Of a DNA stretch of 64,000 nucleotides, positions 5,949 to 47,861 are shown piece by piece. Origin of the DNA: an uncultured Acidimicrobiia bacterium. GTDB taxonomy: Bacteria > Actinomycetota > Acidimicrobiia > Acidimicrobiales > AC-14. The stretch covers positions 128,001-192,000 of the forward strand of contig CAWIIV010000017.1 in NCBI GenBank assembly GCA_963836205.1, read 5' to 3'. Each line of letters opens with the position of its first letter. Position 1 is the stretch's first letter. The position numbers and the translations under genes are program-made. The notes under the pieces are model-generated. The model was given only the letters and a program-made list of their open reading frames with translations, did no database searches and was not told the origin of the DNA.

Positions 5949-6512
5949 TCAGCCCGTGACGGCCACTGGCGCCAGCTCTCGGCGGACGGCCAGGATCGCC
6001 CGGTACTGGAGGGCCCGGACGGCGCTCGGCTGCTTGCCCACCGCCTCCGCGACCTGGGCGACCGACAGGTCGGCGACCACCCGCAGGAGGAGCACGGTGC
6101 GTTGGTCGGGCGACAGCCGGTCGAGGACGGCCCGCACCCGGTCCAACTCCACCCGCGAGAGGGCCACGTCCTCCGCCGAGGCGACCCCGGCCCGACCGGC
6201 GACCCCCTCGGCGGCGGCGTCGAGGTCCTCCATCCTCGGGGTACGGGACGTCACCCGCCGGGCGTCGACGATGCGGTGGTGGGCGATGGTGAACACCCAG
6301 CTCCGGAACTGGGCCTCGGTGCCCCGGAACGCTCCCAGGCCGATGAAGGCGGCCAGGAAGACCTCGTTGACGACGTCCTCCGGGTCATTGATCCCCTGCA
6401 TGCGGACATAGGCGCTCACCGCGGGGGACAGCCATCCGTGCAGGCGGCTGAACGCCCACCCCTCGTTCGCCTGGGCTGCGTTGAGAACTTCGTCGAAGAC
6501 GTCGAGTGCCAA
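5949..6512 (-). CDS. ECF RNA polymerase sigma factor
   Basis: EDVVNEVFL, FRSWVFTIAHHRIVD (region 2); LSPDQRTVLLL..LSVAQVAEAVG (region 4). Confidence 0.92.
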   Translation of the reverse strand: MALDVFDEVLNAAQANEGWAFSRLHGWLSPAVSAYVRMQGINDPEDVVNEVFLAAFIGLGAFRGTEAQFRSWVFTIAHHRIVDARRVTSRTPRMEDLDAAAEGVAGRAGVASAEDVALSRVELDRVRAVLDRLSPDQRTVLLLRVVADLSVAQVAEAVGKQPSAVRALQYRAILAVRRELAPVAVTG

Positions 6513-6744
6513 AATCGTCCGTCCCAGGGCCGCTGGTCCTCCGGTATCGGCCGCACCCGGCCGGGACTTGAGTCGACCGCGTGGGCCGAATGATGCATTT
6601 TGGCCGTCACGGACTCGGGGTCCGCGGCGATGGCCTGGGTGACGCTCTGGCGCACCCGTCCCGTGCCTGCCGGCCCCGATCTCGCAACGAGATTGGGGCT
6701 GGAGCGCGCCGGGGCCGACGACCGCTCAGCCCCGGCCTCCCAGA

Positions 6745-7737
6745 GTGGCAACCATCGCCGTAGAATCGGGGCCCATGGCCGTTCGGAGCGAGATCCGGCT
6801 GGAAGACGACCTGGAGCAGTACCGGCGGGAGCTCACCGGGTACTGCTACCGGATGCTCGGCTCGAACTTCGAAGCCGACGACGCCGTCCAGGAGACGATG
6901 GTGCGGGCGTGGAAAGGGATCGACAGCTTCGAGGGTCGCTCGGCGATGCGCTCGTGGCTGTACCGGATCGCCACCAACGTCTGCCTCGACATGCTCCGGA
7001 GCCGCCAGCGCCGAGCTTTGGCGATGGACCTCGGCCCTTCCTCGCCGGCCGACGCCTTCACCGGTGCCACCCGCCCCGAGCACGCCTGGCTGCAACCCGT
7101 CCCCGACGCCCGGGTGATCCCCACCGACGGCGACCCGGCCGCGGTGGCCGAGTCGCGAGAGTCGATCAAGCTCGCCTTCGTCACCGCACTTCAGGCCCTT
7201 CCTCCCCGCCAGCGGGCCGTGCTCATCCTGCGGGAGGTCCTGCGCTGGCAGGCCACCGAGGTGGCCGAGCTGCTCGAAACCACGGTGGCGTCGGTGAACA
7301 GTGCCCTCCAACGGGCCCGGGCCACGCTCGCCGCCCGCAACGACGGCTCGCCCGAGCCGGAGGTGGTCAGCGCCGCCCACCAGGAGCTCCTGGCTCGCTA
7401 CGTCGACGCCTTCGAGCGCTACGACATCACCGCCCTGGTCAAGCTCCTCCACAACGACGCCGTCATGTCGATGCCGCCCTACGACTTCTGGCTGCGGGGA
7501 CCGGTGGAGATGGGCAAGTGGTTCCTGGGCAACGGCATCGGCTGCAAGGGGTCGCGGCTGATCCCGGTGGCGGCCAACGGCCACGCCGCCTACGGGTCGT
7601 ACAAGCCCGGCGCCGACGGGGGACTGCACCCGTGGTCGATCCAGGTCATCGAGATCTCAGGCGACCGGATCGTCGGGCACCACAACTTCCTCGACACCAC
7701 GCTGTTCCCCGCGTTCGGGCTCCCCGACCACCTGTAG
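6745..7737 (+). CDS. SigG-like ECF sigma factor with C-terminal SnoaL-like extension
   Basis: ELTGYCYRMLGS, DAVQETMVRAW, SWLYRIATNVCLD, LPPRQRAVLILREVL; C-terminal YVDAFERYD..DAVMSMPP domain. Confidence 0.92.
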   Translation: MATIAVESGPMAVRSEIRLEDDLEQYRRELTGYCYRMLGSNFEADDAVQETMVRAWKGIDSFEGRSAMRSWLYRIATNVCLDMLRSRQRRALAMDLGPSSPADAFTGATRPEHAWLQPVPDARVIPTDGDPAAVAESRESIKLAFVTALQALPPRQRAVLILREVLRWQATEVAELLETTVASVNSALQRARATLAARNDGSPEPEVVSAAHQELLARYVDAFERYDITALVKLLHNDAVMSMPPYDFWLRGPVEMGKWFLGNGIGCKGSRLIPVAANGHAAYGSYKPGADGGLHPWSIQVIEISGDRIVGHHNFLDTTLFPAFGLPDHL

Positions 7738-8013
7738 GACGGCACCGGTCGCGCCGGCCACCGCCCGGGCCAGGCCCAGGAAGGCGAGCAGGGCGGTCAG
7801 CTCGCCGCACGCGTCGCGGAGCTTGACCGAGCAGCCCAGACGGCGGGCGGCCAGCTGCAGGCGGGCGAGGTCGTCGACCACCGCCAGGTCGACCGGGCCG
7901 CAGAGCCCCAGCGGCCAGCTGGCGATCTCGACGCCGTCCCGCGTCAGAACCACCACCGCGACCACACCGTCCGGATGCACGATCGTACGACGACCGCCGG
8001 CGTCCAAAATCAT
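7657..8013 (-). CDS. STAS-like small protein convergent with the SigG-like gene
   Basis: DLAVVDDLARLQLAARRLGCSVKLRDACGELTALLAFLGL; 3' ends overlap; start uncertain. Confidence 0.65.
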   Translation of the reverse strand: MILDAGGRRTIVHPDGVVAVVVLTRDGVEIASWPLGLCGPVDLAVVDDLARLQLAARRLGCSVKLRDACGELTALLAFLGLARAVAGATGAVLQVVGEPERGEQRGVEEVVVPDDPVA

Positions 8014-8163
8014 CGACCGCGACCCCTGGGCGCCAGTGACCGACCGGTCCGGCTCTCGGCTGACCTACGGCGCCGGGGACTCCACCGTCGACGCGGCTCT
8101 CGAGGGACGGCCTCGACCGCTTCTCCGCCGTGCTCGTCGAGGCGCTGCGCGCCGGGACGGCCG

Positions 8164-8541
8164 TCAGGTGGGGTCGACGCGTCGGCCCAGGAGGCAGAAC
8201 TCGTTGTCCTCGGGGTCGGCCAGCACCACCCACGGCACCTCGCCCTGGCCGACGTCGACCGGGCGGGCGCCGAGGGCGAGCAGCCGCTCCAACTCCTCCG
8301 CCTGGTCGCAGCCCGACGGATTGACGTCGATGTGGACCCGGTTCTTCACCGTCTTGGGCTCGGCCACGGGCACGAAGACCAGCAGCGGAGGCGGGGCCCA
8401 CGGCTCGCCCGTCGACGACAGCCAGCACGTGCCGTCGTCGTCGTCCTCGTTGAGGGGCCAGCCGAGCACGTCGGCCCAGAAGCGGCCCACCACCCCCGGC
8501 TCCCGGCAGTCGATCACGATCTCCCTGAATACGCTGGCCAT
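8164..8541 (-). CDS. VOC/glyoxalase-like protein
   Basis: IVIDC..FWADVLGW, KNRVHID, WVVLADPEDNEFC. Confidence 0.92.
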   Translation of the reverse strand: MASVFREIVIDCREPGVVGRFWADVLGWPLNEDDDDGTCWLSSTGEPWAPPPLLVFVPVAEPKTVKNRVHIDVNPSGCDQAEELERLLALGARPVDVGQGEVPWVVLADPEDNEFCLLGRRVDPT

Positions 8542-8576
8542 AGGGGAAATCTCACCAAACGGGGAGGCAGCCAACC

Positions 8577-9422
8577 ATGCTCGAACGTCGCGAGTACCCG
8601 CCCGGAGTCCCGTGCTGGGTGGACTCGGCCCAACCCGACGCCGAGGTCGCGGCCCGGTTCTACGGCGGGCTGTTCGGATGGGACATGGAGGACCAGATGC
8701 CGGCCGACTCGCCGGGCCACTACTTCATGGCCCGGCTGCGGGGTCGGGACGTGGCCGCCATCGGGTCGCTCCCCGACCAGGCGCCACCGACGCCGGCCTG
8801 GACCACCTACATCGCGGTCGCCAGCGCCGACGAGACCGCGGCTGCGGTCACCGCGGCCGGGGGGACGGTGCTGGCGGGGCCGTTCGACGTGTTCGACTCG
8901 GGTCGCACGGCGATGTGCGCCGACCCGGCAGGCGCCGTCTTCGGCCTCTGGCAGGCCGGCGCCCACCACGGGGCACAACTGGTGAACGAACCCAACACGT
9001 GGAACTGGAGCAACCTCGAAACCCCCGACGTAAAGGGCGCCAAGGCGTTCTACGGGACGGTGTTCGGCTGGGAGGCCGCCACCGTGAGCTTCGGCGAGAT
9101 GGAGGGCGTCATGTGGCGGCTGCCGGGATACGGCGACTTCCTCGATCGGCTGGAGCCGGGTATCCGCCAACGCCAGGCCGACGCCTCGGTGCCTGCCGGC
9201 TTCACCGACTGCGTCGCCTGGATGGCGCCGACCGCCGGCGAGGGCGCCCCGCAGTGGACCATCACCTTCGCCGTCGACGACACCGACGCCATCGCCGCCC
9301 GCGCCGTCGAGCTCGGGGGTGACGTCGTGGTCGCGCCCTTCGACGCCGGCCCCGTCCGGGTGGCGACGCTGCGCGATCCCCGGGGCACGGTGTTCTCGGT
9401 GAACCGGTACAACCCGGGCTGA
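8577..9422 (+). CDS. Two-domain VOC protein (Rv0577/CFP32-like)
   Basis: PGVPCWVD, FYGGLFGW, DPAGAVFGLWQ; second domain FYGTVFGW. Confidence 0.9.
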   Translation: MLERREYPPGVPCWVDSAQPDAEVAARFYGGLFGWDMEDQMPADSPGHYFMARLRGRDVAAIGSLPDQAPPTPAWTTYIAVASADETAAAVTAAGGTVLAGPFDVFDSGRTAMCADPAGAVFGLWQAGAHHGAQLVNEPNTWNWSNLETPDVKGAKAFYGTVFGWEAATVSFGEMEGVMWRLPGYGDFLDRLEPGIRQRQADASVPAGFTDCVAWMAPTAGEGAPQWTITFAVDDTDAIAARAVELGGDVVVAPFDAGPVRVATLRDPRGTVFSVNRYNPG

Positions 9423-11148: not shown

Positions 11149-11476
11149 ATCGCCCGCCCCGGCGGCCGATGAGTTGCGAGGGCCGGTCTCGTCCTACCTG
11201 CGATGCGGACGACGACCACCTCCCCGACGCCGGAAATCTCTTCGGAAACCGGTCACTGGATGACCGGTTCCGAGGCGCATCATGACCGGGTGGCGGCCGA
11301 AAATCGTTGGTCCCAGCCGGGAAGGCCGGACATGCTGGACCCGTCCGACGTACCTGGTGGGGGACGGGCGATTCCCGGAAAATCCCCGAGCGGCTCGTCC
11401 TTGACTTCAAGTGAACTTCAACAAATAGGGTGGCCGCGGGGCCCCCACTCCACCCGATCAGCGAAGGGACTGCACC

Positions 11477-12517
11477 GTGTCTGAGAACCGAACCGGACTG
11501 ATCGAGCGCCGCGCCCAGCGGCCACAACCACCGTCCGACGTCACCTTCGCGGTCGACGCCCACGGGCTGGTCAAGCGCTACGGCGACACCGTCGCCCTCG
11601 ACGGCATCGACCTCCAGGTCCCGGTGGGGACGGTCACCGCCGTCCTCGGCCCCAACGGGGCGGGCAAGACCACGGCCGTGCGCATCCTCACCACCCTCAC
11701 CCAGGCGGACGAGGGCTCGGCCACGGTGGCCGGCTTCGACGTCCGCCGCCAGGCCACCGAGGTCCGCCGCCGGATCGGCCTGGCCGCCCAGGACGCCACC
11801 GTCGACCCGCTCCTGACCGGCCGGGAGAACCTGGTCATGCTGGGCGAGCTGCACCAGCTCAGCCGCAAGGAGTCGGCCGCCCGGGCGACTGTCCTGCTCG
11901 ACGACTTCTCCCTCACCGAGGCCGCCGACCGGGTCGTCTCGGGCTACTCGGGCGGCATGCGTCGCCGGCTCGACCTGGCCGCCACCCTGATGTCGCGGCC
12001 CAGCGTGCTCTTCCTCGACGAGCCCACCACCGGCCTCGACCCCCGGGCCCGCGCCGAGCTGTGGACCGTGATCGACACCCTCGTCCACCGGGGCACCACG
12101 GTCGTGCTCACCACCCAGTACCTGGACGAGGCCGAGCGCCTGGCCGACGACATCGTCGTCATCGACCACGGCAAGGTCATCGCCCGGGGCGACGCCCGCA
12201 CCCTCAAGCGCACCGTGGGCGGCGACCAGGTGCGGGTCGTGGTGACCGACCCCGAGCGCCTCCACGACGCGGCCCGCATCGTGGAGGACGTCACCGGCTT
12301 CGACGTGATCGTCGACACCGCCACCCGCACGCTCACCGGACCCACCGGCCGCAGCGTGGAGACGGTGGTCCTGGTCGCCCAGGGCCTGCTCCGGTCCAAG
12401 ATCGGGGTCGACGACCTCAGCCTGGGCCAGCCCACGCTCGACGAGGTGTTCCTCACCCTCACCGGAAGCCCCGCCCACGACGACACCGACGACGAGACCG
12501 CCGAGGAGGCGTCATGA
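11477..12517 (+). CDS. DrrA-family ABC transporter ATP-binding protein
   Basis: GPNGAGKT, YSGGMRRRLDLA, LDEPTTGLDP, TTQYLDEAE, PTLDEVFL. Confidence 0.95.
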   Translation: MSENRTGLIERRAQRPQPPSDVTFAVDAHGLVKRYGDTVALDGIDLQVPVGTVTAVLGPNGAGKTTAVRILTTLTQADEGSATVAGFDVRRQATEVRRRIGLAAQDATVDPLLTGRENLVMLGELHQLSRKESAARATVLLDDFSLTEAADRVVSGYSGGMRRRLDLAATLMSRPSVLFLDEPTTGLDPRARAELWTVIDTLVHRGTTVVLTTQYLDEAERLADDIVVIDHGKVIARGDARTLKRTVGGDQVRVVVTDPERLHDAARIVEDVTGFDVIVDTATRTLTGPTGRSVETVVLVAQGLLRSKIGVDDLSLGQPTLDEVFLTLTGSPAHDDTDDETAEEAS

Positions 12518-13383
12518 CTCTCATCCTGGCCACATCCACCGGCGCGCCGGTCGACGCCACGCCGGCCCACGACGACCTGCCCGCCCCCCGGGGGGTCCTC
12601 CACGACGCCCTGGTCATCGCCCGGCGGGGCCTCATCCACATGAAGCGCCAGCCCCAGGCCCTGGCCGACGCCACCATCCAGCCGATCATGTTCGTGCTGC
12701 TGTTCGCCTACGTGTTCGGCGGCGCCATCGACGTCCCCGGCGGCGGCAACTACCGGGAGTTCCTCATGGGCGGGATCTTCGCCCAGACCATCGTGTTCAT
12801 CGCCATGGGCGTGGGCATGTCGATCGCCTTCGACCGCACCAACAAGGCGGTCGACCGGTTCCGGGCCCTGCCCATCTCCCAGGGGGCGGTGCTCGGCGGC
12901 CACGCCCTCGCCAACCTGGTCAAGTCGCTGCTGCCGATCACCCTCATGTCGCTGTGCGGCCTCCTCATCGGGTGGCGCATCCAGTCGGGCCTGGCCGATG
13001 CGGTCGTGGGCTACGCCCTCCTGATCGCCTTCGCCCTGGCCATGATCTGGGTGGGTGTGCTGCTGGGAAGCGTCGTGTCCACCCCCGAGGCGGTGCAGGG
13101 CGTCGGCTTCGTCGTGATGTTCCCGATCACGTTCATCGCCAGCACGTTCGTGCCCACCGAGTCGATGCCCGGCGTGCTGCGGACGATCGCGGAGTGGAAT
13201 CCCGTGACCACCCTCTCCAACGCCGTCCGCATCCAGTTCGGCAACCCCACCGCCCCACCGCTGCCGGGCGACCCGTGGCCGATCGCCCACCCGCTGGCCT
13301 ACTCGCTGATCTGGTGCGTCGTCATCGTGGCCGTCTGCGCCCCCCTGGCCATGCGGGCCTACCGACGCTCGATCGCCGACTAG
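12514..13383 (+). CDS. DrrB-family ABC-2 permease
   Basis: QPIMFVLLFAYVFGG, DRFRALP, WNPVT; ATGA overlap with drrA-like gene. Confidence 0.93.
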   Translation: MTLILATSTGAPVDATPAHDDLPAPRGVLHDALVIARRGLIHMKRQPQALADATIQPIMFVLLFAYVFGGAIDVPGGGNYREFLMGGIFAQTIVFIAMGVGMSIAFDRTNKAVDRFRALPISQGAVLGGHALANLVKSLLPITLMSLCGLLIGWRIQSGLADAVVGYALLIAFALAMIWVGVLLGSVVSTPEAVQGVGFVVMFPITFIASTFVPTESMPGVLRTIAEWNPVTTLSNAVRIQFGNPTAPPLPGDPWPIAHPLAYSLIWCVVIVAVCAPLAMRAYRRSIAD

Positions 13384-13429
13384 TCACCGTCGGCGGACAG
13401 GAGCGGGCGATCCGACGTAGAAAGGCCCC

Positions 13430-13842
13430 GTGAGGCTGCTCGGAGACGACCTCGTCCCCGAGGTGGGCGTCGCCCCTGAAGTGGGACTCGTCTATTGGGT
13501 CGACACCACCATCCTCCCGGCCGGCGACCCCGAGGACCAACGGCCGGTGGTCGTGGTCGAGGTCCCCGCATCGGAGTCGGTGGACGGGCCTGAGTCGGTG
13601 GACGGGACGGTCGGTGGACGGGCCGATCGGTGGACGGGCCTGAGTCGGTGGACGGAACAGTGGTGGTCGTGTCCCGGTCGGCGGTCGACGGCTTCGGCGT
13701 GGAGGACACGGGTGGCGGCGCTCGCTTCTCCCGCCGCCACCCCGTCCCCCGCCGGCTGTGGACGGCGGCGACGGTGACCCCCATCGGCCGCCTCGACGAC
13801 GACGTGCTGGCCGCGGTGCGGGCCCGGTTCAGCGGCCGGTGA
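13430..13842 (+). pseudogene. PemK/MazF-like protein interrupted out of frame by an internal tandem repeat
   Basis: GLVYWVD..GDPEDQRPVVVV, then GTVVVVSRS..IGRLDDDVLAAVRARF in another frame; collapsing the repeat gives 114 aa. Confidence 0.55.
13577..13655. repeat. VNTR, five copies of TCGGTGGACGG with 18/16/16/18 bp spacing
   Basis: Copies start at 13577, 13595, 13611, 13627, 13645. Confidence 0.9.
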
Positions 13843-14851
13843 GCGCCGGCGCGCCGCCGCCGCCGCCGGGCTGGCCGAGCTGCGGGCGGGCCGGGCCGGC
13901 ACCGCCTTCACGGCCGAGCTCCAGCGGACGATCCGGGCGGTGGCCGTGGCCCGGAACTTCCCCCCGCCCGAGGGGCATCCGTCGTGGGACGCCGACGCGG
14001 TGTGGTCGGCCGCGTCCGAGTTCATGAGCGACGCCCAGACCCCCCGCCGGCTCACCGACCTCGCCGTCCACTGCGCCACCGGCGACGCCCTCCGGGCCCG
14101 GCTCCAGGGGACGGTCCGCAACTTCCTCGCCGACCTCGGCCGGCGGACTCCCATCGGCAAGCTCGTGGTGCGGGTCAACGACGTCCTGCGGGGCGAGCCC
14201 GGGTTCCGGTCGGTCGGGGGCCGGTGGGCCCGGGCCGCGGATTCGTCCGACGTCGCCGGCGTCGACGACCCCGAAGCCCTGGGCCGGGCCATCGCCGGCA
14301 TCGACGTGGTCGTGCCCGCCTGGGGCCACGACGCCCACCGGGCGGCACCGGTGGCCGACCGCACCACCATCGTGTCCCTCTGCGACGCCCTGCTCGACGC
14401 CGCCGGCGGCTCGCTCACGGCCCGGGCCCTGGCCCGGGCCATCGGCCGCCGGCTCGGCATCGGCCAGGCGCCCCTGTCGTTGGACGCCAACGCGTTCGAC
14501 GGTGGGGCCGGGACCGCGGGCGCCGCGGGCTCGTCGTCTCCGAAGGCCGACAGCACGGCCGACGAAGCCCTCCGGCTCCACCGGGCGGCCGAAGTGCTGT
14601 CCCAGCTGAACGACCGGGAGCGCCTCGCCGTCGCCTACCCCGAGCTCACCGTCCGCCACCTGGCGCCCGTCCTCGGGGTGAGCCCGTCGCAGTGCCACGT
14701 GATCCGGGGGCGGGCGGCAGAGGTCATCCGGGTCGAGCTGGTCGACGACGACGACGCCGAGGGGGTGGCCCTGCTGGTGATGGCGCTGGGCCGCAATTGG
14801 GCCGACGCGGTGGACAACGTCGCCGGGTCCGCCGTAGTGGTCGCGCGATGA
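13839..14851 (+). CDS. Atypical sigma-70/ECF-like protein (probable 1-nt frameshift in the GCC run near 13855)
   Basis: LQGTVRNFLADLGRR resembles end of region 2; LSQLNDRERLAV..LTVRHLAPVLGVSPSQCH resembles region-4 HTH; long insert between. Confidence 0.6.
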
Positions 14852-16101
14852 GCGTGTTCGGACCGGCGCACCCCCTCGACGTCGACTTGGCCGCGACCGA
14901 CCGCGACCCAGGCGCCGATCTCGAAGTCGCCGATCTCCAAGCCCACCTCCTCGACTGCCGGGTGTGCCGGGTCCGGCGCGACCGGCTCCGCCGGGCCACC
15001 CCCGCCGACCTCCACCTCGACCGGGCCCTGCCATCGCCCGAGATCACGCCTCCCGTGGGTGAGCCCGGCTCACCGGCCGTCGACGACCTGTGGCTGGCCG
15101 GCGACGACGAGCGGCTGCTGGTGCACGTCCTGCGGTTGGAGGAGGGCCGGGCCCTGGTCGCGCCCGTCACCCTCGACGTCGAGGCCGCCGACGACGAGAC
15201 CCTGATCGTCGACGGGGGGCCCCCTGGGCTCGGGCCGCTGGCGATCCACCCCCGGCTGGCCACCGAGGTCCCGGCCTCGGTGCTCGTCGAGCGCATGGGC
15301 CACCTCGACGTGGCCGGCGCCCGCCGGGGCTCCCCCATCGTCGACGCCACCGACCCCCGGCTCGAGGTCCGCCAGCTCCTCGCCGACCGCCTGGCTTCCC
15401 TCGACGAGCCCCCGCCCGACCCCGCCACCAGGGCCGACGCGCGCCCGCCCCGCCCCGAGCACGTCCGATCGGCCCTGATCGGCGACCTGCGCGCCTTCCG
15501 GGGCCGCATGTGCGTGGTCCGCCCCCTGCCGAACTGGGGCGACGTCCTCCTCGCCCACCGGGCCGGATGGGAGCCGATCGCCACCGTCGACGAGATCGGT
15601 ATCGTGCTCGTCGTCCTCGACACGCCCCACGGCCTGGCCGACGACGCCGACTTCGACATCGCCCGTTCGGTACTCACCCGGTTCAACGCCACCGCCCTGG
15701 TCGTGCTGGCGTCCGCGGTCAGCGACACCGCCGAGGCGTTCGACTCGTCGTCGCTCAACTACGGGATCGACGCCCCGTCCGGCCGCCACACCGCCCCCCG
15801 CCCCCTCATCTCCGGCCTGGCCCCGTTCGACGCCATCGCCAAGTTCCTCGACCAGGTCTCGGGCGCCCGGTTGGCGGCTCCCGCGTCCCGAGGCCCGGTC
15901 ACCCGGGTCGACGTCGACCAGATCCTGCGGGAGGCGGCCGGCGCCGCCGTGGCCGAGTCGGTGCGCCAGGGCTCCAAGTTCCGGATCGTCCCCAAGCGGC
16001 GGGGCTACGAGTCGATCGCCGACGCCCAGGACGGCTTCGAGACCGCGCTGGCACGCGCCTTCGGGCCCGGCTTCGCCGTCCAGGACCTGCTCGACCTGTG
16101 A
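14848..16101 (+). CDS. ZAS (zinc anti-sigma) motif protein with additional uncharacterised domains
   Basis: H8-x24-H33-x3-C-x2-C (QAHLLDCRVC); no obvious TM segment; ATGA overlap with the upstream gene. Confidence 0.65.
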   Translation: MSVFGPAHPLDVDLAATDRDPGADLEVADLQAHLLDCRVCRVRRDRLRRATPADLHLDRALPSPEITPPVGEPGSPAVDDLWLAGDDERLLVHVLRLEEGRALVAPVTLDVEAADDETLIVDGGPPGLGPLAIHPRLATEVPASVLVERMGHLDVAGARRGSPIVDATDPRLEVRQLLADRLASLDEPPPDPATRADARPPRPEHVRSALIGDLRAFRGRMCVVRPLPNWGDVLLAHRAGWEPIATVDEIGIVLVVLDTPHGLADDADFDIARSVLTRFNATALVVLASAVSDTAEAFDSSSLNYGIDAPSGRHTAPRPLISGLAPFDAIAKFLDQVSGARLAAPASRGPVTRVDVDQILREAAGAAVAESVRQGSKFRIVPKRRGYESIADAQDGFETALARAFGPGFAVQDLLDL

Positions 16102-17861
16102 TCACGCACATCTCGCTCGAGAACTGGCGGGCCTACCGCAGCCTCGACATCGACGTCCTGCCCGGTACCACGTTCCTCGTCGCCCCCAACGGCGTGGGCA
16201 AGAGCTCGCTGTTGGAGGCGGTGCGGTGGGTGTTGGCCGCCGGCAATGTCGAGCACCGGGCGTCGATGATCCGACAGGGCCACAAGGAGGCGACGGCCGC
16301 TGTCACGGTCGACGTCTCCGGCGGCTCCCTGGTCGTCGCCCGAGCCCTGCGGGCCAAGGGCGCCCGGCTGACGACGGAGACGACGGCCACCCTCGCCGGC
16401 CACCCGGTCGACGAGGCGGAGGCGGTGCGGCTGCTGGAGGAGTCGTGGTCGGCCGACCCCCGGTTCGTGTCCCGCACCGCCTTCCTCACCGAGGACCTCC
16501 GCCGGGACGCAGAGGAGCCCAACCTGCGCACCCATCTGTGCCGGGCCTACTCCCTCGACGACCTCCAGCGGGCGGTGGCCGAGATCGAGCCCGTCCTGAC
16601 CCAGCTGTCCAAGGGACTGAAGGCCTCCCGGGCCGAGCTTTCGGCGACCGAGGAGCAGCTGCGCACGGCCCAGGACGACCTGACCGGCCTGTCGGAGCGG
16701 GCCGCAACCGCCGGCGCCGCGGTCGACGCGGCCCGGGCGGCCCACACCGAGCTCCGGGCCGCCCTCGAGGTGGCCCGGGCGGCGGAGACGCAACGGGCGG
16801 CGGCGACCGCGTGGCGGGAGCGGGACGAACGCCTCCGGGACGAGGCAACCACGATCGGCCTCGTCCCGGAGGCGGGCGCACCGCTGGCCACCGCCCTGGC
16901 CGCGGTGGAGGACGACCTCGCGGCCCGCGTCGAGTCCATCCGCCAGCAGCAGGCCGCCCTGCGGGCCCGGGTGGAGGCGGCCGAGGCCGCCCTGGCGGCG
17001 CTGCTGGAGGCGGGGGCGACGTGTCCGGTGTGCCTGCGGGAGCTCGACGACGACAGCCGGGAGCGGGCCGAGCACCTCCACCGCACCGGGGTCGAGGTGG
17101 CCAGCGACGTGCTCGCCGACCTCGACCAGTCGACCGCGGCCGTCACCCTCGACGCGGTGCGCCAGCTGGCCCGGCGGGCGGCGGCGCTCGGCACCCCTCC
17201 CGAGGAGCCGCCGGCCGCCGGGCTCGACGAGCTGGTGGCGGCCGAGACCGAGGCCCAGGCCGCGCTCGAAGCGGCCGTCGGCGGCCTGCGGGAGGCGCAG
17301 CTGGCGGAGCAGGCCGCGGTGGCCCGGGTGGGCGCCATCCGCACCGACCTCGCCACCGCCGGCGCCCTCACCGAGCAGTACCGGGCCGAGGCCCTGCTGG
17401 AAGCGGCCAAGTCCGCCCTCAACCAGACCATCACCACCGTGCTCGGCCGCCAGCTGGAGCCGGTGGCGGCCGAGGTCAACCGCCGGTGGGAGGCCGTCTT
17501 CCCCGACCGGCCCAACCTCCACGTGCTGCCCGACGGGCAGATGTCGCGGGTGATCGACGGCGATCAGCTCGAGTTCGGGGCCTTCAGCGCCGGCGAGCAG
17601 ACCGTGGCCAAGCTGATGATGCGCCTCACCACCCTGCTGGCCACCACCACGGTGCCGTTCTGCTGGGTCGACGAGCCCCTGGAGCACCTCGACCCGGTCT
17701 CCCGCCAACTGGTCGGCAGCACCCTGGCCCATCTGAGCGCGGCCGGCGGGCTGGAGCAGATCTTCGTCACCACCTACGAGGAGCCCCTGGCCCGGCGTCT
17801 GGCCGAGCTCCAACCCGACCGGGTCCGGGTGCAGTACCTCCGCACCGAACCGTCCCGCTGA
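16098..17861 (+). CDS. Rad50/SbcC/SMC-like ABC ATPase with zinc hook
   Basis: ISLENWRAY, Walker A APNGVGKSS, coiled coils around CPVC, signature FSAGEQ, Walker B WVDEP, D-loop LEHLD. Confidence 0.9.
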   Translation: MITHISLENWRAYRSLDIDVLPGTTFLVAPNGVGKSSLLEAVRWVLAAGNVEHRASMIRQGHKEATAAVTVDVSGGSLVVARALRAKGARLTTETTATLAGHPVDEAEAVRLLEESWSADPRFVSRTAFLTEDLRRDAEEPNLRTHLCRAYSLDDLQRAVAEIEPVLTQLSKGLKASRAELSATEEQLRTAQDDLTGLSERAATAGAAVDAARAAHTELRAALEVARAAETQRAAATAWRERDERLRDEATTIGLVPEAGAPLATALAAVEDDLAARVESIRQQQAALRARVEAAEAALAALLEAGATCPVCLRELDDDSRERAEHLHRTGVEVASDVLADLDQSTAAVTLDAVRQLARRAAALGTPPEEPPAAGLDELVAAETEAQAALEAAVGGLREAQLAEQAAVARVGAIRTDLATAGALTEQYRAEALLEAAKSALNQTITTVLGRQLEPVAAEVNRRWEAVFPDRPNLHVLPDGQMSRVIDGDQLEFGAFSAGEQTVAKLMMRLTTLLATTTVPFCWVDEPLEHLDPVSRQLVGSTLAHLSAAGGLEQIFVTTYEEPLARRLAELQPDRVRVQYLRTEPSR

Positions 17862-17939: not shown

Positions 17940-18590
17940 TCAACGCCGGCTGACGTCCCGCAGCCGCGACTCCACGGCCTCCCGCCGGGCGTCGGACGCG
18001 TCGTCTTCGTCGTCGCCCAGGAACAGGTCGTGCAGCTGCACCGCGAGGACCGCCTGTTGGGTAGCGGTGGCGGCGAGGTCGTCCCGCTCGGCCACGTAGG
18101 CCGCGGCCGCCTTCACCGCCTCGTGCTCGACCCGGTCGACCTCGTCCGGGTGGTCGAAGCGCCACCGCCGGGCCCGTTGGACGATGGCCGGCTTGTCGTC
18201 GTCGGCGTCGATGCCGGCGGCGGGGAAGACCCGGCAGTCGTAGGTGCGACATGCCCGCGGCCGGTGCTCGTAGATCGAGCAGGCATCGTCCACCAACATG
18301 GGGCAGTGGCCGTGCTCGTCGTAGCCCATGAGGACGTGGCCGACGGGCAGGCGGGGGGCCTCGAACAGCAGGCGGGCGGGTATCCGGGCCCGGGTGGCGG
18401 CCTCCTCGGGCCCGATGTGGACGAACTGCGACGAGGTGCAGCAAGCGGTGCAGCCGTGGCACGGCACCTCCGACTCGCCTCCGCCCCGAAGGGCGCGCTG
18501 CATCCCGGCCAGCCAGGCGGAGAAGCTCCCGGCCGGCAGCGGCTGGTCGTCGGTCGCGTCCGTCTTGGCCCCGGACTGACTGTCGCTCAG
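17940..18590 (-). CDS. YkgJ-family cysteine-cluster protein
   Basis: CHGCTACC, CPML..CSIYEHRPRACRTYDC; start uncertain (ATG 18503 or upstream CTG 18590). Confidence 0.85.
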   Translation of the reverse strand: MSDSQSGAKTDATDDQPLPAGSFSAWLAGMQRALRGGGESEVPCHGCTACCTSSQFVHIGPEEAATRARIPARLLFEAPRLPVGHVLMGYDEHGHCPMLVDDACSIYEHRPRACRTYDCRVFPAAGIDADDDKPAIVQRARRWRFDHPDEVDRVEHEAVKAAAAYVAERDDLAATATQQAVLAVQLHDLFLGDDEDDASDARREAVESRLRDVSRR

Positions 18591-19006
18591 CGGGCCCGGA
18601 CCCGGTTGTTGCGGGGGTTGTGCTCCAGCTCGACCAGGCCGAGGTGCTCGAGGAGGGGTGGGACGTACATGGCGAAGCGGCCCCGGTAGCCCTTGCGCAG
18701 CCCGTACCAGCCGCCGACCGGGTTGTCCTCGGCGCGGGCCCAGGCCTCCAAGGTCCCGTCCTTGGCCGGCTTGTTCTCGTCGGCGCTGCCGAGGTCCATC
18801 CAGTCGCCGTGCTCACGGAGCATGGCCGGGGCGTCGTCCAGGCAGCGGGCGAGATACTTCAGCTTGGTCGTCCCGACGACGCAGACCAGCTCGGCCGGGT
18901 CGACGCTGTCGTCCCGGTACATCTGGTACTCGGAGGTCCCGGGCGGCGTCCTCAGGACCCACGGGTCGTCCGGGGTCCCAGTGCCGGTCGCGGCGGTGTC
19001 GGTCAT
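18587..19006 (-). CDS. Conserved hypothetical protein (DUF6855-like)
   Basis: GTPDDPWVLRTPPGTSEY, NPVGGWYGLRKGYRGRF, EHNPRNNR. Confidence 0.75.
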   Translation of the reverse strand: MTDTAATGTGTPDDPWVLRTPPGTSEYQMYRDDSVDPAELVCVVGTTKLKYLARCLDDAPAMLREHGDWMDLGSADENKPAKDGTLEAWARAEDNPVGGWYGLRKGYRGRFAMYVPPLLEHLGLVELEHNPRNNRVRAR

Positions 19007-19009
19007 GGG

Positions 19010-19989
19010 GACCATTCTGCCCCGCTCGTCGCGACGGGCGCGGGCCCGGCGCTTGCCTTCGTGCATGGCCTGCACCCGGCCGGTGGGGATGGCGTGGCCC
19101 TCGGCGACGAGGTCGGCCGGCAGCGGCTGGGGGCCGGGCATCCGCTCGGCCCACGAGTCGCGGTCGCCGAGCTGCCGCAGGGCGGTGTGGATGGTGAAGT
19201 CGGCCGGCCGGGCGGCGTCGATCTCGCCCAGGCCGGCGGGAACGACACCGGCACGCCCGGCCGCACCCGCGGGCTGTAGGCGGCCACCACCGTCGCCCCG
19301 CCCACCCGGGTGGCGTCGACGAACACCTTCCCGTCGCGGTCCTCCTTCATGAAGGCGACGGTCGCCAGGCCGGGGTCGAGGGCCGCGGCCCGGCCGGCGA
19401 TGGCCCGGGTGGCGGCGGCCGCGTCCTCGATCGACGCCTGGTCGTCGATGGGCACGAACACGTGGACGCCCTTGGCCCCGCTGGTCTTGGCCGCCCACTC
19501 CAGGCCGACGTCGGCGAGGGCCTGGCGGACGAGCTTGGCCGCGCCGACGGCCATGGAGAAGGCGTCGATGGCGCCCTCCGGCGGGTCGAGGTCGAGGACG
19601 AGGTGGGTCATGCGGTCGGGACGGTCGACCTTGACGAGGGTCGGGTGGTATTCGATGGCCCGCTGGTTGGCGAACCACACCAGCGCGCGGCGGTCGTTGC
19701 ACAGGGCGAACGCCACCTCCCGCTTGGAGGCCTCCGCCCACATCTTCACCGTCCGGACCCACTCCGGGGTGTACTTGGGGACGTTCTTCTGCATGAACGC
19801 CTCCTGGCCTCGGTGGACCCGGATGACCGACAGCGGCCGGTCCTCCAGCACCGGGAGGATCCGGTCGGCGACCCCGTCGAGGTACTCGATGAGGTCCCGC
19901 TTGGTCGCCTCGGCACCGTCGAACAAGGGCTGGTCGAGGTTGGTCAACGTCACCCCGTGACGTGACTCCGCTGCTTTGGCCTCAGGCAT
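19010..19989 (-). CDS. LigD-type NHEJ primase-polymerase domain protein (frameshift near 19230)
   Basis: TNLDQPLF, TKRDLIEY, FMQKN, DLDPPE, KTSGAKGVH, AYSPR; C-terminus continues in a second frame. Confidence 0.85.
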
Positions 19990-22592: not shown

Positions 22593-22638
22593 TGGTGGCG
22601 GGGGTAGGATTTGAACCTACGACCCTTCGGGTTATGAG
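22593..22638 (-). repeat. att site (3' part of tRNA-fMet), outer copy
   Basis: TGGTGGCGGGGGTAGGATTTGAACCTACGACC(C)TTCGGGTTATGAG matches 47785-47829 with one extra C. Confidence 0.93.
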
Positions 22639-23093
22639 TTACCCGAAGAATCCGGCGGTCCGTGCTGATTGGTGCGGGTTCGTGCCTGTGAGCTGGCCTT
22701 TCGTGGCTGCGTCCTCCTGGTTCGGGTGGCTCGGTCCGGGTCCGACCCGATCGGTCCGGTAGAAGATCCGGTAGAAGAACCACCCAGGTGCAGGGGCACT
22801 CGCCGGTCCTCGTCGTCGAACACGGCCATCAGCTCCAGCCGGGCGCCGAGGGCCTCGAGGTACTGGCGGAGCGTTGAGACGCGTACGTCGTCGGCGTGCT
22901 CGAACTTGGAGACCGCCCCCTGGGTCACCTCTAGCCGGCCTGCCAGCTCGGCCTGACTCACCGCCTCGGCGTGGCGCAACTCGTACAGGCGGATCTCCTC
23001 CAATGTCTCGACTCGCTTCTCAGCGAGACGCTCCTTGGCGCCGGGACGCGCCTCGAGCTCTTGGCGGAGCTCGGAGAACTTGCGTCGAGCCAT
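22632..23093 (-). CDS. XRE-family antitoxin (HigA-like)
   Basis: SQAELAGRLEVTQGAVSKFE, STLRQYLEALG; coupled to the toxin gene; tail extends across the att arm. Confidence 0.85.
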   Translation of the reverse strand: MARRKFSELRQELEARPGAKERLAEKRVETLEEIRLYELRHAEAVSQAELAGRLEVTQGAVSKFEHADDVRVSTLRQYLEALGARLELMAVFDDEDRRVPLHLGGSSTGSSTGPIGSDPDRATRTRRTQPRKASSQARTRTNQHGPPDSSGNS

Positions 23094-23449
23094 CAGATCA
23101 ACCCCTCGTCGCGCAACTCGTCGAGATATCGGTCGTAGAGGTCATCAGCGGCGGGTACCGCCCACTCGTACCATGTGTCCCAGTCGCCGCTCTTGTCGCC
23201 GCCCAGCAGTAGGATCACCTGCCGGCGCGGGTCGAAGGCGAACAGCACGCGGAGCGCCCCGCCTTTGGAGGCCCTGAGTTCCTTCATATTGTGGTGCCGC
23301 GATGTGCTGATGCGGTCCACCACCGGCCGGCCCAGGTCGGGCCCTTGTCCGGCGAGGAAGTCGACACGGTCCGTGACCGACTCCTGCTGGTCGACCGACA
23401 ACGCCTCCCACCACTCGATGAACTCGTCGGTGACCTCGACTTCCCACAT
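23093..23449 (-). CDS. RelE/HigB-like (Gp49-like) toxin
   Basis: GPDLGRP, NMKELR, LRVLFAFDPRRQVILLLGGDK; toxin-first gene order. Confidence 0.9.
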   Translation of the reverse strand: MWEVEVTDEFIEWWEALSVDQQESVTDRVDFLAGQGPDLGRPVVDRISTSRHHNMKELRASKGGALRVLFAFDPRRQVILLLGGDKSGDWDTWYEWAVPAADDLYDRYLDELRDEGLI

Positions 23450-35072: not shown

Positions 35073-38000
35073 CTAGAGCCCGAGCGCCAGGTGTGGCGGC
35101 TCGATCGTGTACACCCGCTCGACGGTGCGATCGAGGCTCTCGCATGCTTCGGATGCGGCCCGCTGGCTGGCGTCGAAGGCGGTGTCGTCCCAACCACGTG
35201 AACGCCCGAGTGTGGTGACGTCGAAAGCGGCGCAGTGCTGGTCGATGCGAGCCGCCGCCTCATCCCACAGGTCGGCGGCAGCGCCCTGTGCGGGACGCGG
35301 GCCCAGGCGGTCGACGAGGTGGTCGGGCGGGTCGGCGATTAGCCCAGGTATCCGGGCGGCAAGGTCCCGGTCGAGTTCCCGGCGGATGCCATGGCGCTCC
35401 CGGTCGAGGCTGGGGCGCTCCCGTATGGTTGCCTGGGCTCGCTCAAGCGCCGCCTCCAGTTCGGGCCGGTGAGCGTCCAGCTCTGCCATCTCGGCGGTGC
35501 ACGCCTCGATGCGGCCCACCGCTTGGTTCAGGTTCCCCTGGGCCAGTGAGATCTCCGAGCGGTGCAGGCGCCACAGCAGGGGCCGATCGAAGGCTTCGAG
35601 GACGTCCTCGGACTTGTCCCGCGTGAGCTCGGCCTCGGCCAGGCGCCCGGCCAACTCGTCGTTGCGCTGCGTGCTCCGGTCGAGTTGTTCGCTGTACCTG
35701 CCTATAGCGTCCACCGCCCTCGACAGCGAGCGGGTGATCTCGTGCTCCCGCTCCAACAGCTTGCGTAGGTGCGCCCCCTCCAGCTGGTCTCCGAGCCCTC
35801 GGCCGTCGCCGTCGGGCTCCCGCCGTTGCAGCTCGGCCCGGCGGGCGATGGCGGGCTCGTCGATCCAGTCCCGGACCAATGCCTTGCCGACGAGGTCGAC
35901 GGCGGTCTGCTCACCCTGGAGAGCGACGAAGACCTCATTGCTCTGCCGGCCCCTGGTCATGGGCACGTAGACGCCGCGGGTGTCGGTGGGGCCGTCGAGG
36001 AAGAGCAGGGAGCGGTCTACGGTGCGGCCCTGGTTGGCGTGGCTGGTCTGGGCGTAGGCCAGCTCCAGGTGCTCGGCCACGTACTCGGCGGGAAGCCGGA
36101 CCGTGCCCGTGCGACCGGAGACGGTGACGTCGCCCCGGTGGACGTCGGCGACCTTCCACAGGTCGCGGTTCTTGACCATGAGGCCCCGGTCGGTGTGCAG
36201 CTCCCGGTCGTTGCGGCGGGTGGCCACGACGTCGCCCCGGAAGAACTGGTACTCCCCCACCGACACCGAAGGACCGAAGATGTCGATCTCGCCCGCTTCC
36301 GCCCGCAGGTCCTGGGCTCGCAGGTTCAGCTCCACCACGGTCTCGTTCGTCGGCGCCATCATGGCCACGCTCTCGCTCCGACCCCTGGCCTGCCACCAGG
36401 CGTCGACGACCGCCTCCTCCATCTGGCGAGGCGTTCCGCCGTGGAGACGGCCGTGGTGGTCGTAGAGGTGGAGGATCTCGGTGTCGCCCCGGCGCAGGGC
36501 CAGGCTGGCGTCGCGTTCCCACTCGTTGGCGAAGCGGTGGACCCGGTCCAGTTCGATGGCGCCGTAGCAGTTGATGAGATGGCCGAACATGCCCGAGCGC
36601 CCCACCGCGGAGAACTGCAGCGGGTCGCCGACCAGCGCCATGCGCCATCCCCGGGCGTCGGCCAGCTCCGCCAGCTCGGCCAGCTTCGGCGTCGAGACCA
36701 TGGCCGCCTCGTCGACCACGACGGTGGCTCCGGGGGGCAGGTCGTAGCGGTGGTCGGGTGGCCGGTCGAGGCGGTGCTCGACGAGGAGCTTGTCCAGGGT
36801 GTCCGAGGCTAGGCCGGCGTCGGTGCCCAGCACCTCGGCCGCCCCCGCCGAGGGGGCCACGCCAAAGACCGCCCGGCCGTCGGCCCGCAGCTGCTCCACC
36901 GCCGGAGCCACCGCAGAGGTCTTGCCGGTGCCGGCGGGACCGACGACCAGCGCCAGCTCCCGGTTGCCGGCCACCGCCCCCGCCACCTCCAACTGGGGCT
37001 TGGACAGGGCCAGGCTCACTCCCGACGCGTCCAGGGCGACGTCGCCGCCAACGGCGGCCAGGCGGCGCTCGGCCCAGGCGATGAGGCGCTCCTCCTGGGC
37101 GAGGATCTCGGGCGTGGTCAGGGCCCGATCGGCAACCGACTCGGTGATGGGCCGGCCATCGCGTCGCAGGGCCACGCCGTCGGGGATGGGCCTGGAGATG
37201 TCGACCAGGCGTTCGGCGATGACCGCCTCACCCAGCTGGTGCAGCCACGGCACGAGGATCTCGGCATCGAGGGCGACGTCGGTGGGCACGGCCGCCGCCA
37301 GCTCCCGGACCAGCTCGGCCGGCCGCCAGCTCGACTGGGTCTCGGTCAGGGCCTTGAGGGCTCGGGAGACGATCAGCTCCTGTGTCGCGGTGTCCATCGC
37401 CCGGCCGGCGCTCGGCTGCGACACGGCCGCGCCGACGACGTACTCGGGGTCGTGGCCGATGGCGGTGGCCCGCTCGGCCCACTCCGCGTGCAGCGACCAA
37501 GCGTCGTCGCCGTGGGACTTCGACGGCCGGCTCTCGGTCACCGCCTCCCGCTCCAGGCGCCAGCGCTCACGGGGGGTGGGGTCTCGCTCGAAGGACTCGA
37601 CGAAGCGCTCGAGCTTGTCCTCGATCCGCTCCTCCACCGCCTTGGTGCGGGAGGAGAACTCGGCCAGCACGTCGTCGGGGACGCCCTTCATTTCGGCGAT
37701 GCCGTGGACCGGCTCGGCCCACTCCACCCCCAGGGAGCGGGTCAGCTCGGTCCGCAGGCTGGCGTGGTAGAGGGCGGACAGCGTCCGCTGGTCGCACTTG
37801 ATGGTGCGGGCGTCCAGCGCCAGCCAGCGGCCGTCATCGGCGACGACCCGGTTGGCGATGACCACGTGGGTGTGCAGCTGGGGGTCCAGCGCCCGGCTGG
37901 TGTGCTGGCGGAAGCAGGCGGCGGCGATGCCCTCGGCGTCGAGCGTGCGGACCTGGCCGCCGATGCGGTAGCGGGTGTGGGCGTGGTCCTCGATCCAGTC

Positions 38001-38354: not shown

Positions 38355-38443
38355 CCGCGCCACCCGCCCGCGGGTGTGCACTCGTCTGTCCTGAATTGCG
38401 ACAGGGGGGTAGTCGGGAGGTTGCTCATGGTTGTCGGGGCCTC

Positions 38444-43941: not shown

Positions 43942-43952
43942 CCGGAGCGACC

Positions 43953-47784: not shown

Positions 47785-47861
<77 letters not shown>

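Follow-up and report, generated by a model that had tools for sequence, protein, structure and literature searches.

A cluster of four genes, designated g1 to g4, was analyzed in a 64,000-nucleotide stretch of DNA (the window) from an uncultured Acidimicrobiia bacterium (assembly GCA_963836205.1, contig CAWIIV010000017.1), where it occupied positions 13430-17861. All four genes lay on the plus strand, in surroundings of 72-76% G+C, and were joined by 4-nt stop/start junctions (GTGA 13839-13842, ATGA 14848-14851 and GTGA 16098-16101). These three overlaps, at 13839, 14848 and 16098, were read in the sequence exactly as claimed by an earlier note on this DNA, hereafter the original prediction, and its observation of a four-gene cluster was largely right, though two of the four genes were broken in this copy. 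With modest confidence, the cluster was interpreted as a self-contained transcriptional switch, in which a sigma factor (g2) would be controlled by an anti-sigma factor (g3) tethered to a Rad50-like ATPase (g4). The features of the locus were as follows.

13430..13842 (frames 13430-13777 and 13630-13842), plus strand: g1, small gene, plausibly MazF/PemK-like, split into two frames (open reading frames, homologues)
13574..13655, plus strand: imperfect tandem repeat of 15-18-nt units, about 4.8 copies, breaking the g1 frame (Tandem Repeats Finder, sequence)
13839..14851 (conserved frame readable from about 13868 to 14851), plus strand: g2, predicted divergent extracytoplasmic function (ECF)-type sigma factor (hhalign, fold, profile matches)
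14848..16101, plus strand: g3, with a ZAS (zinc-binding anti-sigma) domain at residues ~1-50, a MazF/CcdB fold at ~74-160, a PD-(D/E)xK fold at ~200-340 and a hairpin at ~347-417 (alignment, AlphaFold2 model)
15886..16098, plus strand: helical hairpin at the C-terminus of g3, the predicted contact with the coiled-coil base of g4 (complex prediction)
16098..17861, plus strand: g4, Rad50/SMC-like ABC ATPase of 587 aa with a short coiled coil (Pfam, PADLOC, motifs)
17022..17033, plus strand: CPVC zinc hook of g4, C309-C312 (alignment)
13395..13419, plus strand: P1, promoter-like motif GGAC-N17-CGTA, ending 10 nt before the GTG of g1 (alignment, pattern match)
14812..14836, plus strand: P2, second copy of the motif within the 3' end of g2, its CGTA ending 11 nt before the ATG of g3 (pattern match)
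11328..11352, plus strand: copy of the motif in the form GGAC-N12-TCC-NN-CGTA, some 125 nt before the gene of the exporter's ATPase (G000:C17:139328-139352)
11477..13383, plus strand: DrrAB-like ABC-2 exporter (ATPase 11477-12517, permease 12514-13383), predicted cargo (Pfam)

In the window, g3 (14848-16101, 417 aa) and g4 (16098-17861, 587 aa) were intact. The first gene, originally presented as a single open reading frame (ORF), was found instead in two frames (13430-13777 and 13630-13842), broken by the tandem repeat; intact g1 homologues lacked the repeat, and in relatives the gene was a single ORF of 89-128 aa. The codon GTG 13839 was out of frame with the conserved g2 ORF, whose first in-frame canonical start was GTG 13940, and the frame break was located in a (GCC)n run at 13843-13868. 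The g2 homologues opened with V/M-S-A-L-x-E-L-x-A-G at a start codon overlapping the g1 stop. In a contig of a close relative, obtained from a public metagenome run, 8 nt were missing at 13850, which would bring GTG 13839 back in frame; this evidence was weak, coming from one contig at a depth of about 5. Among the public runs checked for the locus, none was from RNA and none held more than 0.14 of the sampled words, and the g1 repeat was covered by no contig of these runs. The breaks in g1 and g2 were either real mutations or assembly errors of this metagenome-assembled genome (MAG).

A g3 homologue was detected in 12 of 41 related genomes (the genome of the window counted), in 6 of 7 other genomes of the genus and in 10 of 24 of the family. 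In all 10 loci taken from relatives, g2, g3 and g4 were adjacent and co-oriented. A scan with one genome per species yielded 27 loci, in all of which g2 and g3 were present, and g4 was present in 26, the sole miss coinciding with a contig end. The co-occurrence of the genes in other genomes, with which the original prediction stood or fell, was thus borne out for the trio g2-g3-g4. The scanned loci all came from MAGs labelled Acidimicrobiia or Actinomycetota, except one labelled Chloroflexia; the locus counts given here take in two loci (L030 and L031) from genomes flagged as unpublished (G008 and G015), on which no result depends. The 4-nt overlap was kept between g3 and g4 in 25 of 28 scorable loci and between g2 and g3 in 16 of 28, counted without L022 and L023, in which g3 is split, and without the truncated L031 and L049. 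The family was rare: when the class was sampled evenly, 4 genomes out of 401 carried it, and in a library of 1.84 billion proteins clustered at 50% identity the g3 profile gave 120 clusters with E limited to 1e-30 and 336 with E limited to 1e-10. The family is small and confined to uncultured Acidimicrobiia-type genomes, of soil actinobacteria, so that work on it would have to be heterologous. Based on g3 identity to the window, two deep clades were distinguished, clade A (>= 45%, that is, at least 45%) and clade B (about 30%), and genome G004 carried one copy of each. Interrupted genes were also seen elsewhere: g4 was split after about residue 380 in G001 (L015/L029), and for g3 a split or interruption was seen in G018 and in G004, there in the second copy (L022, L023).

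The g2 family was aligned by hhalign, in a run without the chimeric row P0115, with 18 ECF sigma factors of the same genome at a probability of 91.7% (E = 7.6e-7). The alignment spanned sigma2 (residues 7-100) and sigma4, the stretch between them being left as a gap, and the g2 motif 'VRNFLADxGRR' was aligned with region 2.4 of the ECF sigmas. This gap corresponded to a conserved, partly folded insert of about 120 residues (~110-228), so that g2 departs from the ECF hallmark of a short sigma2-sigma4 linker without sigma3. In the AlphaFold2 model (predicted local distance difference test, pLDDT, 83.6), the C-terminal domain had sigma region 4 as its top VIA-align matches (Z 7.5-7.9, root-mean-square deviation (rmsd) 1.5-4.3 A over 60-76 residues), with SigL, WhiG, SigD and SigK as partners, which identified a sigma4 domain. 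Nearly all of the top 50 Foldseek rows were sigma70-family chains, at weak E-values of 0.03-0.8. When the family profile, here including P0115, was searched against the PDB, 26 of 29 matches were sigma factors (best E = 8e-4), FliA and SigA region 4 among them. The row P0115 itself was set aside as sigma evidence; its last ~70 residues are an RpoD-like region 4, probably from a chimeric contig. These profile and model results suggested that g2 is a divergent ECF-type sigma factor built of sigma2, an insert of about 120 aa and sigma4. The sigma2-like and sigma4-like parts with a long insert, as first described for this gene, were thus supported by hhalign and, for the sigma4-like part, by the fold, while its supposed start at GTG 13839 was not.

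The N-terminal domain of g3 carried the zinc motif H8...H33-x3-C37-x2-C40, invariant in 31 of 31 aligned family members and agreeing with the ZAS pattern H/C-x(23-26)-H-x3-C-x2-C. The Pfam family zf-HC2 was matched in 21 of the 31 members (E <= 0.01), the window's own copy not being among them. Of the five PDB matches of the g3 profile, four were ZAS anti-sigma factors, including DdvA (0.008), RslA (0.016) and ChrR (0.38-0.44). Pfam, NCBIfam and PADLOC gave nothing usable on the window's g3, and ESM Atlas returned no usable match. It could be argued from the ZAS motif and the matches to ChrR and RslA that the cluster is a plain redox- or electrophile-responsive ZAS/ECF pair of the RsrA-SigR or ChrR-RpoE type, with the zinc site as the sensor and g4 merely co-transcribed, and the exporter and glyoxalase-family genes described below would suit a xenobiotic or electrophile response. 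This explanation was considered improbable. The first 50 residues of g3 contain His-His-Cys-Cys ligands and no further conserved Cys, g4 stands beside g3 in 26 of 27 loci with a 4-nt overlap in 25 of 28, and g4 is predicted to bind g3 and is fused to it in one protein (see below).

Beyond the ZAS domain, the AlphaFold2 model of g3 (pLDDT 78.6) contained two further folded domains and the C-terminal hairpin. The MazF/CcdB fold of residues ~74-160 was seen in Foldseek, where MazF was matched at a probability of 1.00 and E = 2.6e-3 (99 columns with an rmsd of 2.5 A; TM(target) about 0.6), and in VIA-align (Z 9.1, rmsd 3.1 A over 90 residues). Residues ~200-340 resembled the PD-(D/E)xK fold in VIA-align. 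The partners were Hjc at Z 8.3 (with 115 residues out of 125 aligned), BpuSI at 7.8, a putative restriction-endonuclease-domain protein from Leptospirillum ferriphilum at 7.7 and the HsdR N-terminus at 6.9, all Z values lying in the range that VIA-align calls common. No canonical PD-(D/E)xK motif and no conserved Lys was found in the g3 family alignment. The description of g3 as a ZAS fusion with extra domains was hence supported by the invariant motif, the ZAS profile matches and the predicted folds. Parts of g3 were also met in other proteins: two from other genomes of the class (G226:C36:258629-259279 and G199:C42:7997-8611) matched only the ZAS and MazF-like half (profile positions 4-221), the rest of each being different or unassigned, and P0355 (1179 aa) carried the ZAS and MazF-like part (positions 31-219) fused to an NNH7/NACHT-type NTPase and a cyclic-nucleotide-binding domain.

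These folds would suit a different explanation, close to that of the original prediction, in which the cluster is a defence system of the abortive-infection type: g4 would detect foreign DNA and unleash the MazF-like g1 and/or the MazF and PD-(D/E)xK domains of g3, and the sigma factor would be secondary. This was judged unlikely, even though several observations suit it. Besides the toxin-like and restriction-endonuclease-like folds themselves, Arg and Thr at the MazF catalytic positions were kept in most g3 family rows, which also counts against the transcriptional switch. The N-terminus of NACHT-type proteins is the usual place of an output or effector module, and it is this place that the ZAS and MazF-like part takes in P0355. 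PADLOC matched g4 to mad3 (2.2e-18) and, partially, to LmuB (1.6e-11). Against this stand the missing PD-(D/E)xK motif, the failure of PADLOC to match any of g1-g3, and the score of g4 with the NCBIfam MADS3 model, which was 25.9 bits against a cut-off of 420. In addition, the MazF-like domain of the published anti-sigma factor CalpT serves sigma binding, according to its description (bioRxiv 10.1101/2024.05.08.593097). The remaining evidence on this point is given below with g1 and with the genes adjoining the module.

The g4 protein was matched by Pfam SMC_N (6.9e-18; 65.3 bits against a cut-off of 40) and AAA_23 (1.2e-10), and by Rad50_zn_hook at 22.9 bits, slightly below the cut-off of 24.3. 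Its Walker A motif, C309-P-V-C312 hook, FSAGE signature and Walker B motif (DEP) were invariant in the 26 full-length rows among 30, and C309, P310 and C312 were invariant in all 23 rows aligned at the hook. With ABC head motifs, a coiled coil and a CxxC hook, g4 thus shows the hallmarks of Rad50/SbcC. The NCBIfam Rad50 equivalogs, in contrast, scored only 56-58 bits against cut-offs of 700-1087. No gene for an Mre11/SbcD phosphoesterase was found in the operon or at any locus examined, and the claim that the fourth gene encodes a zinc-hook ABC ATPase without an Mre11 partner therefore held.

A complex of g3 (residues 200-417) with g4 was predicted with a score of 0.76, compared with 0.00 for the best control. 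Among solved complexes 58 of 80 reach this mark, among mismatched pairs 2 of 110. Three runs shared at least 69% of contacts, with a partner pLDDT of at least 79. In the predicted interface, g3 residues 347-417 lay on g4 residues 118-182 and 421-459, at the base of the coiled coil; on Rad50, this is the binding site of the Mre11 helix-loop-helix. The prediction thus supports a model in which the g3 hairpin would dock on g4 as Mre11 does on Rad50. A protein of 1074 aa (P0370) joined a complete g3 (zf-HC2 at 13-39, profile match over 4-423) to a g4-like zinc-hook ATPase.

The same interface, the nuclease-like fold of g3 and the invariant zinc hook and ATPase motifs of g4 would also be compatible with a DNA-repair machine, in which g3-g4 would act on ends, hairpins or adducts as a working analogue of Mre11-Rad50/SbcCD, with the sigma/ZAS pair doing no more than setting its expression. 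A gene for a LigD primase-polymerase (19003-19989, minus strand) lies 1.1 kb downstream of the cluster and is a neighbour in one relative as well. This alternative was given a low probability, since no conserved catalytic PD-(D/E)xK residues were found in g3, an anti-sigma domain fused to the subunit in the nuclease position argues for signalling, and repair leaves the presence of the promoter-like motif before exporters, a glyoxalase-family gene and Bub operons unexplained.

Alignment of the DNA upstream of the first gene revealed this motif as two blocks in the arrangement (C/T)GGAC-N17-CGTA(G/C), the 3' block being extended to tCC(G/C)ACGTAG. An 'AC' -35 and a 'CGT' -10 element at a fixed spacing of 17 nt are the form of ECF promoters. 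The loose motif preceded the module in 30 of 31 loci, in clades down to about 30% g3 identity, and the 31st locus lacked upstream DNA; in these loci it was counted 62 times on the strand of the genes, against 7 times on the opposite strand. In clade A, the first long ORF (g1 or g2) began 8-14 nt after CGTA in 16 of 17 loci, and this short gap suggests an mRNA with little or no leader. In the other clades, the place after the motif was taken not by the long ORF but by a short one of about 31 codons. At L038:5588-5683, and at the same position in L039-L043, such an ORF of about 31 codons started 11 nt after the motif and overlapped g1 at an ATGA, and it may encode a small peptide from a leaderless mRNA; different short ORFs held that position in clade B. 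A copy of the loose motif stood at the position of P2 in 17 of 31 loci, all in the clade with g2-g3 overlap or near-overlap (including L022 with its split g3).

The strict pattern was matched 5 times in the 4.05-Mb genome, three of the matches lying within 3.5 kb at the cluster, and spacers longer or shorter by one base gave none. In nine module-bearing genomes it was matched 37 times, compared with 6 for a reversed-pattern control, and in 16 genomes without a g3 match 18 times, compared with 9. A position weight matrix built from 27 unique P1 sites was also tried; it was overfitted and missed the site before the ABC exporter, and the simple pattern with spacer controls was used in its place.

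Copies of the motif were also associated with further genes, here termed cargo. The exporter genes upstream of g1 were matched by ABC_tran (5.6e-31) and ABC2_membrane (6.3e-28), and a homologous DrrAB-like pair adjoined the module in 14 of 31 loci, upstream of it in the genus and downstream elsewhere. Of 7 genus loci, 6 had the motif, in its loose form outside the window, before the gene of the adjacent ABC ATPase (the window, L024, L025, L026, L027 and L029; not L028), and in L022 a copy preceded the ABC ATPase gene that follows g4. A second DrrA-like ATPase gene with the motif was found in three genomes, in two of them confirmed by Pfam and in the third (L087) identified from the N-terminal sequence only. 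Outside the cluster, the motif was located 35 nt upstream of a gene for a 128-aa protein of the Glyoxalase/bleomycin-resistance family in this genome, and it was kept at the same distance of about 35 nt before the orthologous gene (127-130 aa) in six genus genomes. In the other clades, the motif occurred no more than about 110 nt after g4 in 9 of 12 loci; in a tenth (L021) a copy lay about 1 kb further on, just upstream of a Multi_ubiq gene. A Bub operon (Multi_ubiq; Prok-E2_E or DUF6791-ThiF; DUF6527) directly followed g4 in nine loci, three of which were near-identical and hence not independent. A crude gene caller based on G+C at third codon positions (GC3), which mis-called several module genes, served only to pick the ORFs submitted to Pfam.

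The bipartite ECF-type motif shared by the module and its cargo operons is a new observation. Since the motif travels with the module and with the cargo, the module behaves as a portable regulator. The motif marks the operon, g3-g4 and the neighbouring cargo operons, and this evidence points to transcription as the predicted output of the cluster. The RNase toxin that had been proposed as an output was shown by nothing in the data; the conserved ECF-type motif points to transcription instead.

The evidence from g1 bears mainly on the defence model. Of 29 loci with enough upstream sequence (two short contigs could not be scored), 15 had g1 at full length, 10 lacked it and 3 had a truncated form of about 72 aa, the window with its broken copy making up the rest. 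The gene was found in both clades and hence appears ancestral but dispensable. All of the top seven PDB matches of the g1 family profile were MazF/PemK proteins with full-length alignments, at E-values of only 0.17-0.8, and Pfam PemK_toxin was matched by 1 of 13 g1 members (E = 0.088; cut-off 23.1 bits). Pfam, NCBIfam and PADLOC gave nothing usable on the window's g1. On these profile matches the label PemK-like is plausible, not established: of the toxin claimed originally there remained a sub-significant likeness (E 0.17-0.8) in a gene that is broken here and absent or truncated in 13 of 29 loci. A common origin of g1 and the MazF-fold domain of g3 was considered and is not claimed, as hhalign found no relation between the two families (probability 0.2%).

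For the defence model it counts as unfavourable that g1 is absent, truncated or broken in 14 of the 29 scorable loci while the trio persists. No antitoxin-like gene preceded g1, which is the first gene after the motif in clade A, and no antitoxin family of the MazE/PemI type matched any cluster gene in Pfam, NCBIfam or PADLOC. In the genus, the cluster is syntenic and single-copy, with a GC3 of 0.95-0.96, the same as that of its neighbours. In L021 and L023, on the other hand, the GC3 of the clade-B module and Bub operon was 0.76-0.83 compared with 0.87-0.97 in flanking genes, which suggests joint horizontal acquisition and counts in favour of the defence model. The nine adjoining Bub operons point the same way; their role is still open, and their describers suspect immunity or stress, according to the preprint (bioRxiv 10.1101/2024.11.21.623953). 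Nevertheless, the strongest conserved non-coding signal at the locus was a promoter motif common to exporters and a glyoxalase-family gene, which speaks against defence as the primary function.

Sigma/anti-sigma pairs are a main route from signal to transcription in bacteria, the inputs known for them being membrane stress, redox state, proteolytic cascades and partner switching. For the transcriptional switch preferred here, the following mechanism is proposed. The N-terminal ZAS domain of g3 would hold g2 inactive, possibly aided by the MazF-fold domains, as CalpT does with its sigma factor CalpS; if CalpT is a guide, those parts of g3 and g1 that have a MazF fold may serve to bind sigma and not as RNases. 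The g3 hairpin would tether g3 to the coiled-coil base of g4, in the place that Mre11 takes on Rad50, and a signal read by the g3-g4 complex would free g2. The likeliest signal would be foreign DNA or a DNA structure such as ends, breaks or adducts, to which the ATP cycle of g4 would be coupled. We infer this from the Rad50-like nature of g4, from the kind of cargo (a daunorubicin-type exporter family and the bleomycin-resistance/glyoxalase family) and from the published company of Bub operons, where DNA-damage-responsive regulators are frequent neighbours (of 544 operons, 31% have CapH+CapP and 8% CapW/BrxR), as stated in the same preprint (bioRxiv 10.1101/2024.11.21.623953). Freed g2 would then transcribe from GGAC-N17-CGTA promoters. 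At P1 it would drive its own operon by positive autoregulation, probably as a leaderless or near-leaderless mRNA, and the internal promoter P2, driving g3-g4, would give negative feedback. The cargo would depend on the lineage, with DrrAB-like ABC-2 exporters and the glyoxalase/bleomycin-resistance protein in the genus and Bub ubiquitin-like operons elsewhere, and g1 would be an accessory, dispensable MazF-fold protein.

Several results weigh against this mechanism. For g2, Pfam reported no family at E <= 1, NCBIfam TIGR02937 scored 15.4 bits against a cut-off of 42.9, none of the 40 matches of a Sigma70_r2 scan of the genome fell at g2, and the sole Sigma70_r4 match in the g2 family alignment was the chimeric row P0115. 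It is by co-occurrence alone that the motif is assigned to g2, rather than to another of the about 40 sigma factors. The high score of the g3-g4 complex may reflect likeness to solved Mre11-Rad50 complexes, and P0370 may be a frameshift artefact, because the g3 and g4 genes overlap by 4 nt. The genome-wide enrichment of the motif was modest, with 5 matches compared with 1 for the reversed control in this genome. With g1 and the 5' end of g2 broken, the window's own copy may not work. Finally, the strict motif also preceded a gene for a 226-aa protein consisting only of an ATP-dependent DNA ligase adenylation domain (G000:C12:64945-65669, L051). This gene was rejected as a regulon member, the motif being absent upstream of the closest orthologue (G007) and at the 22 other ligase loci examined, and the L051 copy was treated as a chance or strain-specific match; the lack of conservation likewise counts against the repair model.

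The closest published analogue is CalpT-CalpS. In that system, CalpT, an anti-sigma factor with a MazF-like domain, holds CalpS, a sigma factor of ECF-like kind, until a sensor protease acts, as described in the report (bioRxiv 10.1101/2024.05.08.593097). Both systems would thus combine an ECF-like sigma factor held by an anti-sigma factor that includes a MazF-like domain, together with a dedicated sensor that releases it, and in both the gene of a MazF-like protein stands directly before the sigma gene. Unlike CalpL-CalpT-CalpS, the cluster has no SAVED-Lon protease and no DUF2080, its sensor would be a Rad50-like ATPase, and g3 adds a ZAS domain, a PD-(D/E)xK-fold domain and the tether; the two systems were compared by description, not by sequence. 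No CRISPR context was noticed in the loci, for which no systematic search was made.

The pairs RsrA-SigR, ChrR-RpoE, RslA-SigL and DdvA-DdvS share with the cluster an N-terminal helical H-x3-C-x2-C zinc domain encoded beside a sigma gene and an autoregulated promoter of the 'AC ... CGT' type, which in the cluster is predicted. They differ in that g2 is missed by the Pfam sigma models and contains some 120 aa of insert, and in that g3 is cytoplasmic, has three further domains and is coupled to an ABC ATPase. Like Rad50/SbcC, g4 has an ABC head, an antiparallel coiled coil and a CxxC hook, with a partner hairpin predicted at the coiled-coil base; unlike Mre11-Rad50/SbcCD, g4 is much shorter (587 aa), no phosphoesterase nuclease is present, and g3 has MazF-like and PD-(D/E)xK-like folds and an anti-sigma domain. 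In Lamassu (LmuA-LmuB-LmuC) and MADS, too, a small operon encodes nuclease-fold proteins together with a short SMC/Rad50-like ATPase, about 600 aa long. In the present cluster, however, g1-g3 matched no LmuA, LmuC or other MADS model in PADLOC (E <= 1), no methyltransferase gene was present, the MADS3 score of g4 was far below cut-off, and the predicted output is transcription. It therefore belongs neither to Lamassu, which is defined by LmuB with an LmuA effector (and LmuC), nor to MADS, defined by the mad3 equivalog with the other mad genes, a methyltransferase gene among them. The regulators CapH+CapP and CapW/BrxR likewise lie directly beside Bub operons and respond to DNA damage or phage infection, as stated in the Bub preprint. 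Those are repressors (HTH with metalloprotease, and HTH-WYL), whereas here a sigma/anti-sigma pair with an ATPase would exert positive control.

The assertion that the gene combination fits no named system was sustained: PADLOC matched nothing for g1-g3, and no description of the combination (ECF/anti-sigma with Rad50/SMC/SbcC or Lamassu) was found in the open-access literature searched. The cluster is best filed as sigma/anti-sigma signalling with a Rad50-like sensor subunit. We put forward tentatively, and at rather less than an even chance, the broader proposal that a Rad50-like zinc-hook ATPase serves here as the sensor of a sigma switch instead of in repair, that an anti-sigma factor has taken the place of Mre11, and that DNA ends, damage or invading DNA would lead to protease-free release of the sigma factor and to expression of portable cargo, either Bub operons or exporters and binding proteins for genotoxic compounds. 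In particular, the sensing of DNA ends or foreign DNA by g4 would be our reading of its family and its company. If true, an SMC/Rad50-type ATPase acting on an anti-sigma factor would add the state of DNA as a new class of input for ECF-type sigma factors, and the Rad50 scaffold would have been reused for signalling, in parallel with Lamassu-type immunity. The predicted promoter makes the switch model directly testable, and the link with Bub would offer a route to the inducing condition of a ubiquitin-like pathway without an assigned role.

In the wider surroundings of the cluster, the region just upstream (window 5952-9419) contained ordinary ECF sigma genes at 5952-6512 (minus strand) and 6745-7734 (plus strand), and the genes at 8167-8574 and 8577-9419 were further members of the glyoxalase/bleomycin-resistance family; the strict motif was found before none of the four. 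An integrative element of lower G+C (0.60-0.69) extended over 21700-47900 of the window and ended at a tRNA-Met gene (47785-47861). It contained integrase genes at 22154, 29589 and 40272, a Gp49/HTH pair (22635-23449), a TrwC relaxase gene (35076-38834), a pentapeptide-repeat gene and a type I restriction-modification system (hsdR/M/S, 41548-47041). The g1-g4 module lay outside this element, which starts about 4 kb downstream. The proximity to defence islands that the original prediction suggested checking thus took the form of a mobile element with a type I restriction-modification system about 4 kb away, the cluster itself being not inside an island and showing conserved synteny and native GC3. 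Directly downstream of the cluster, a gene for a protein with a CxxCxxCC zinc/iron-chelating domain (17940-18503, minus strand) was conserved in four genus relatives.

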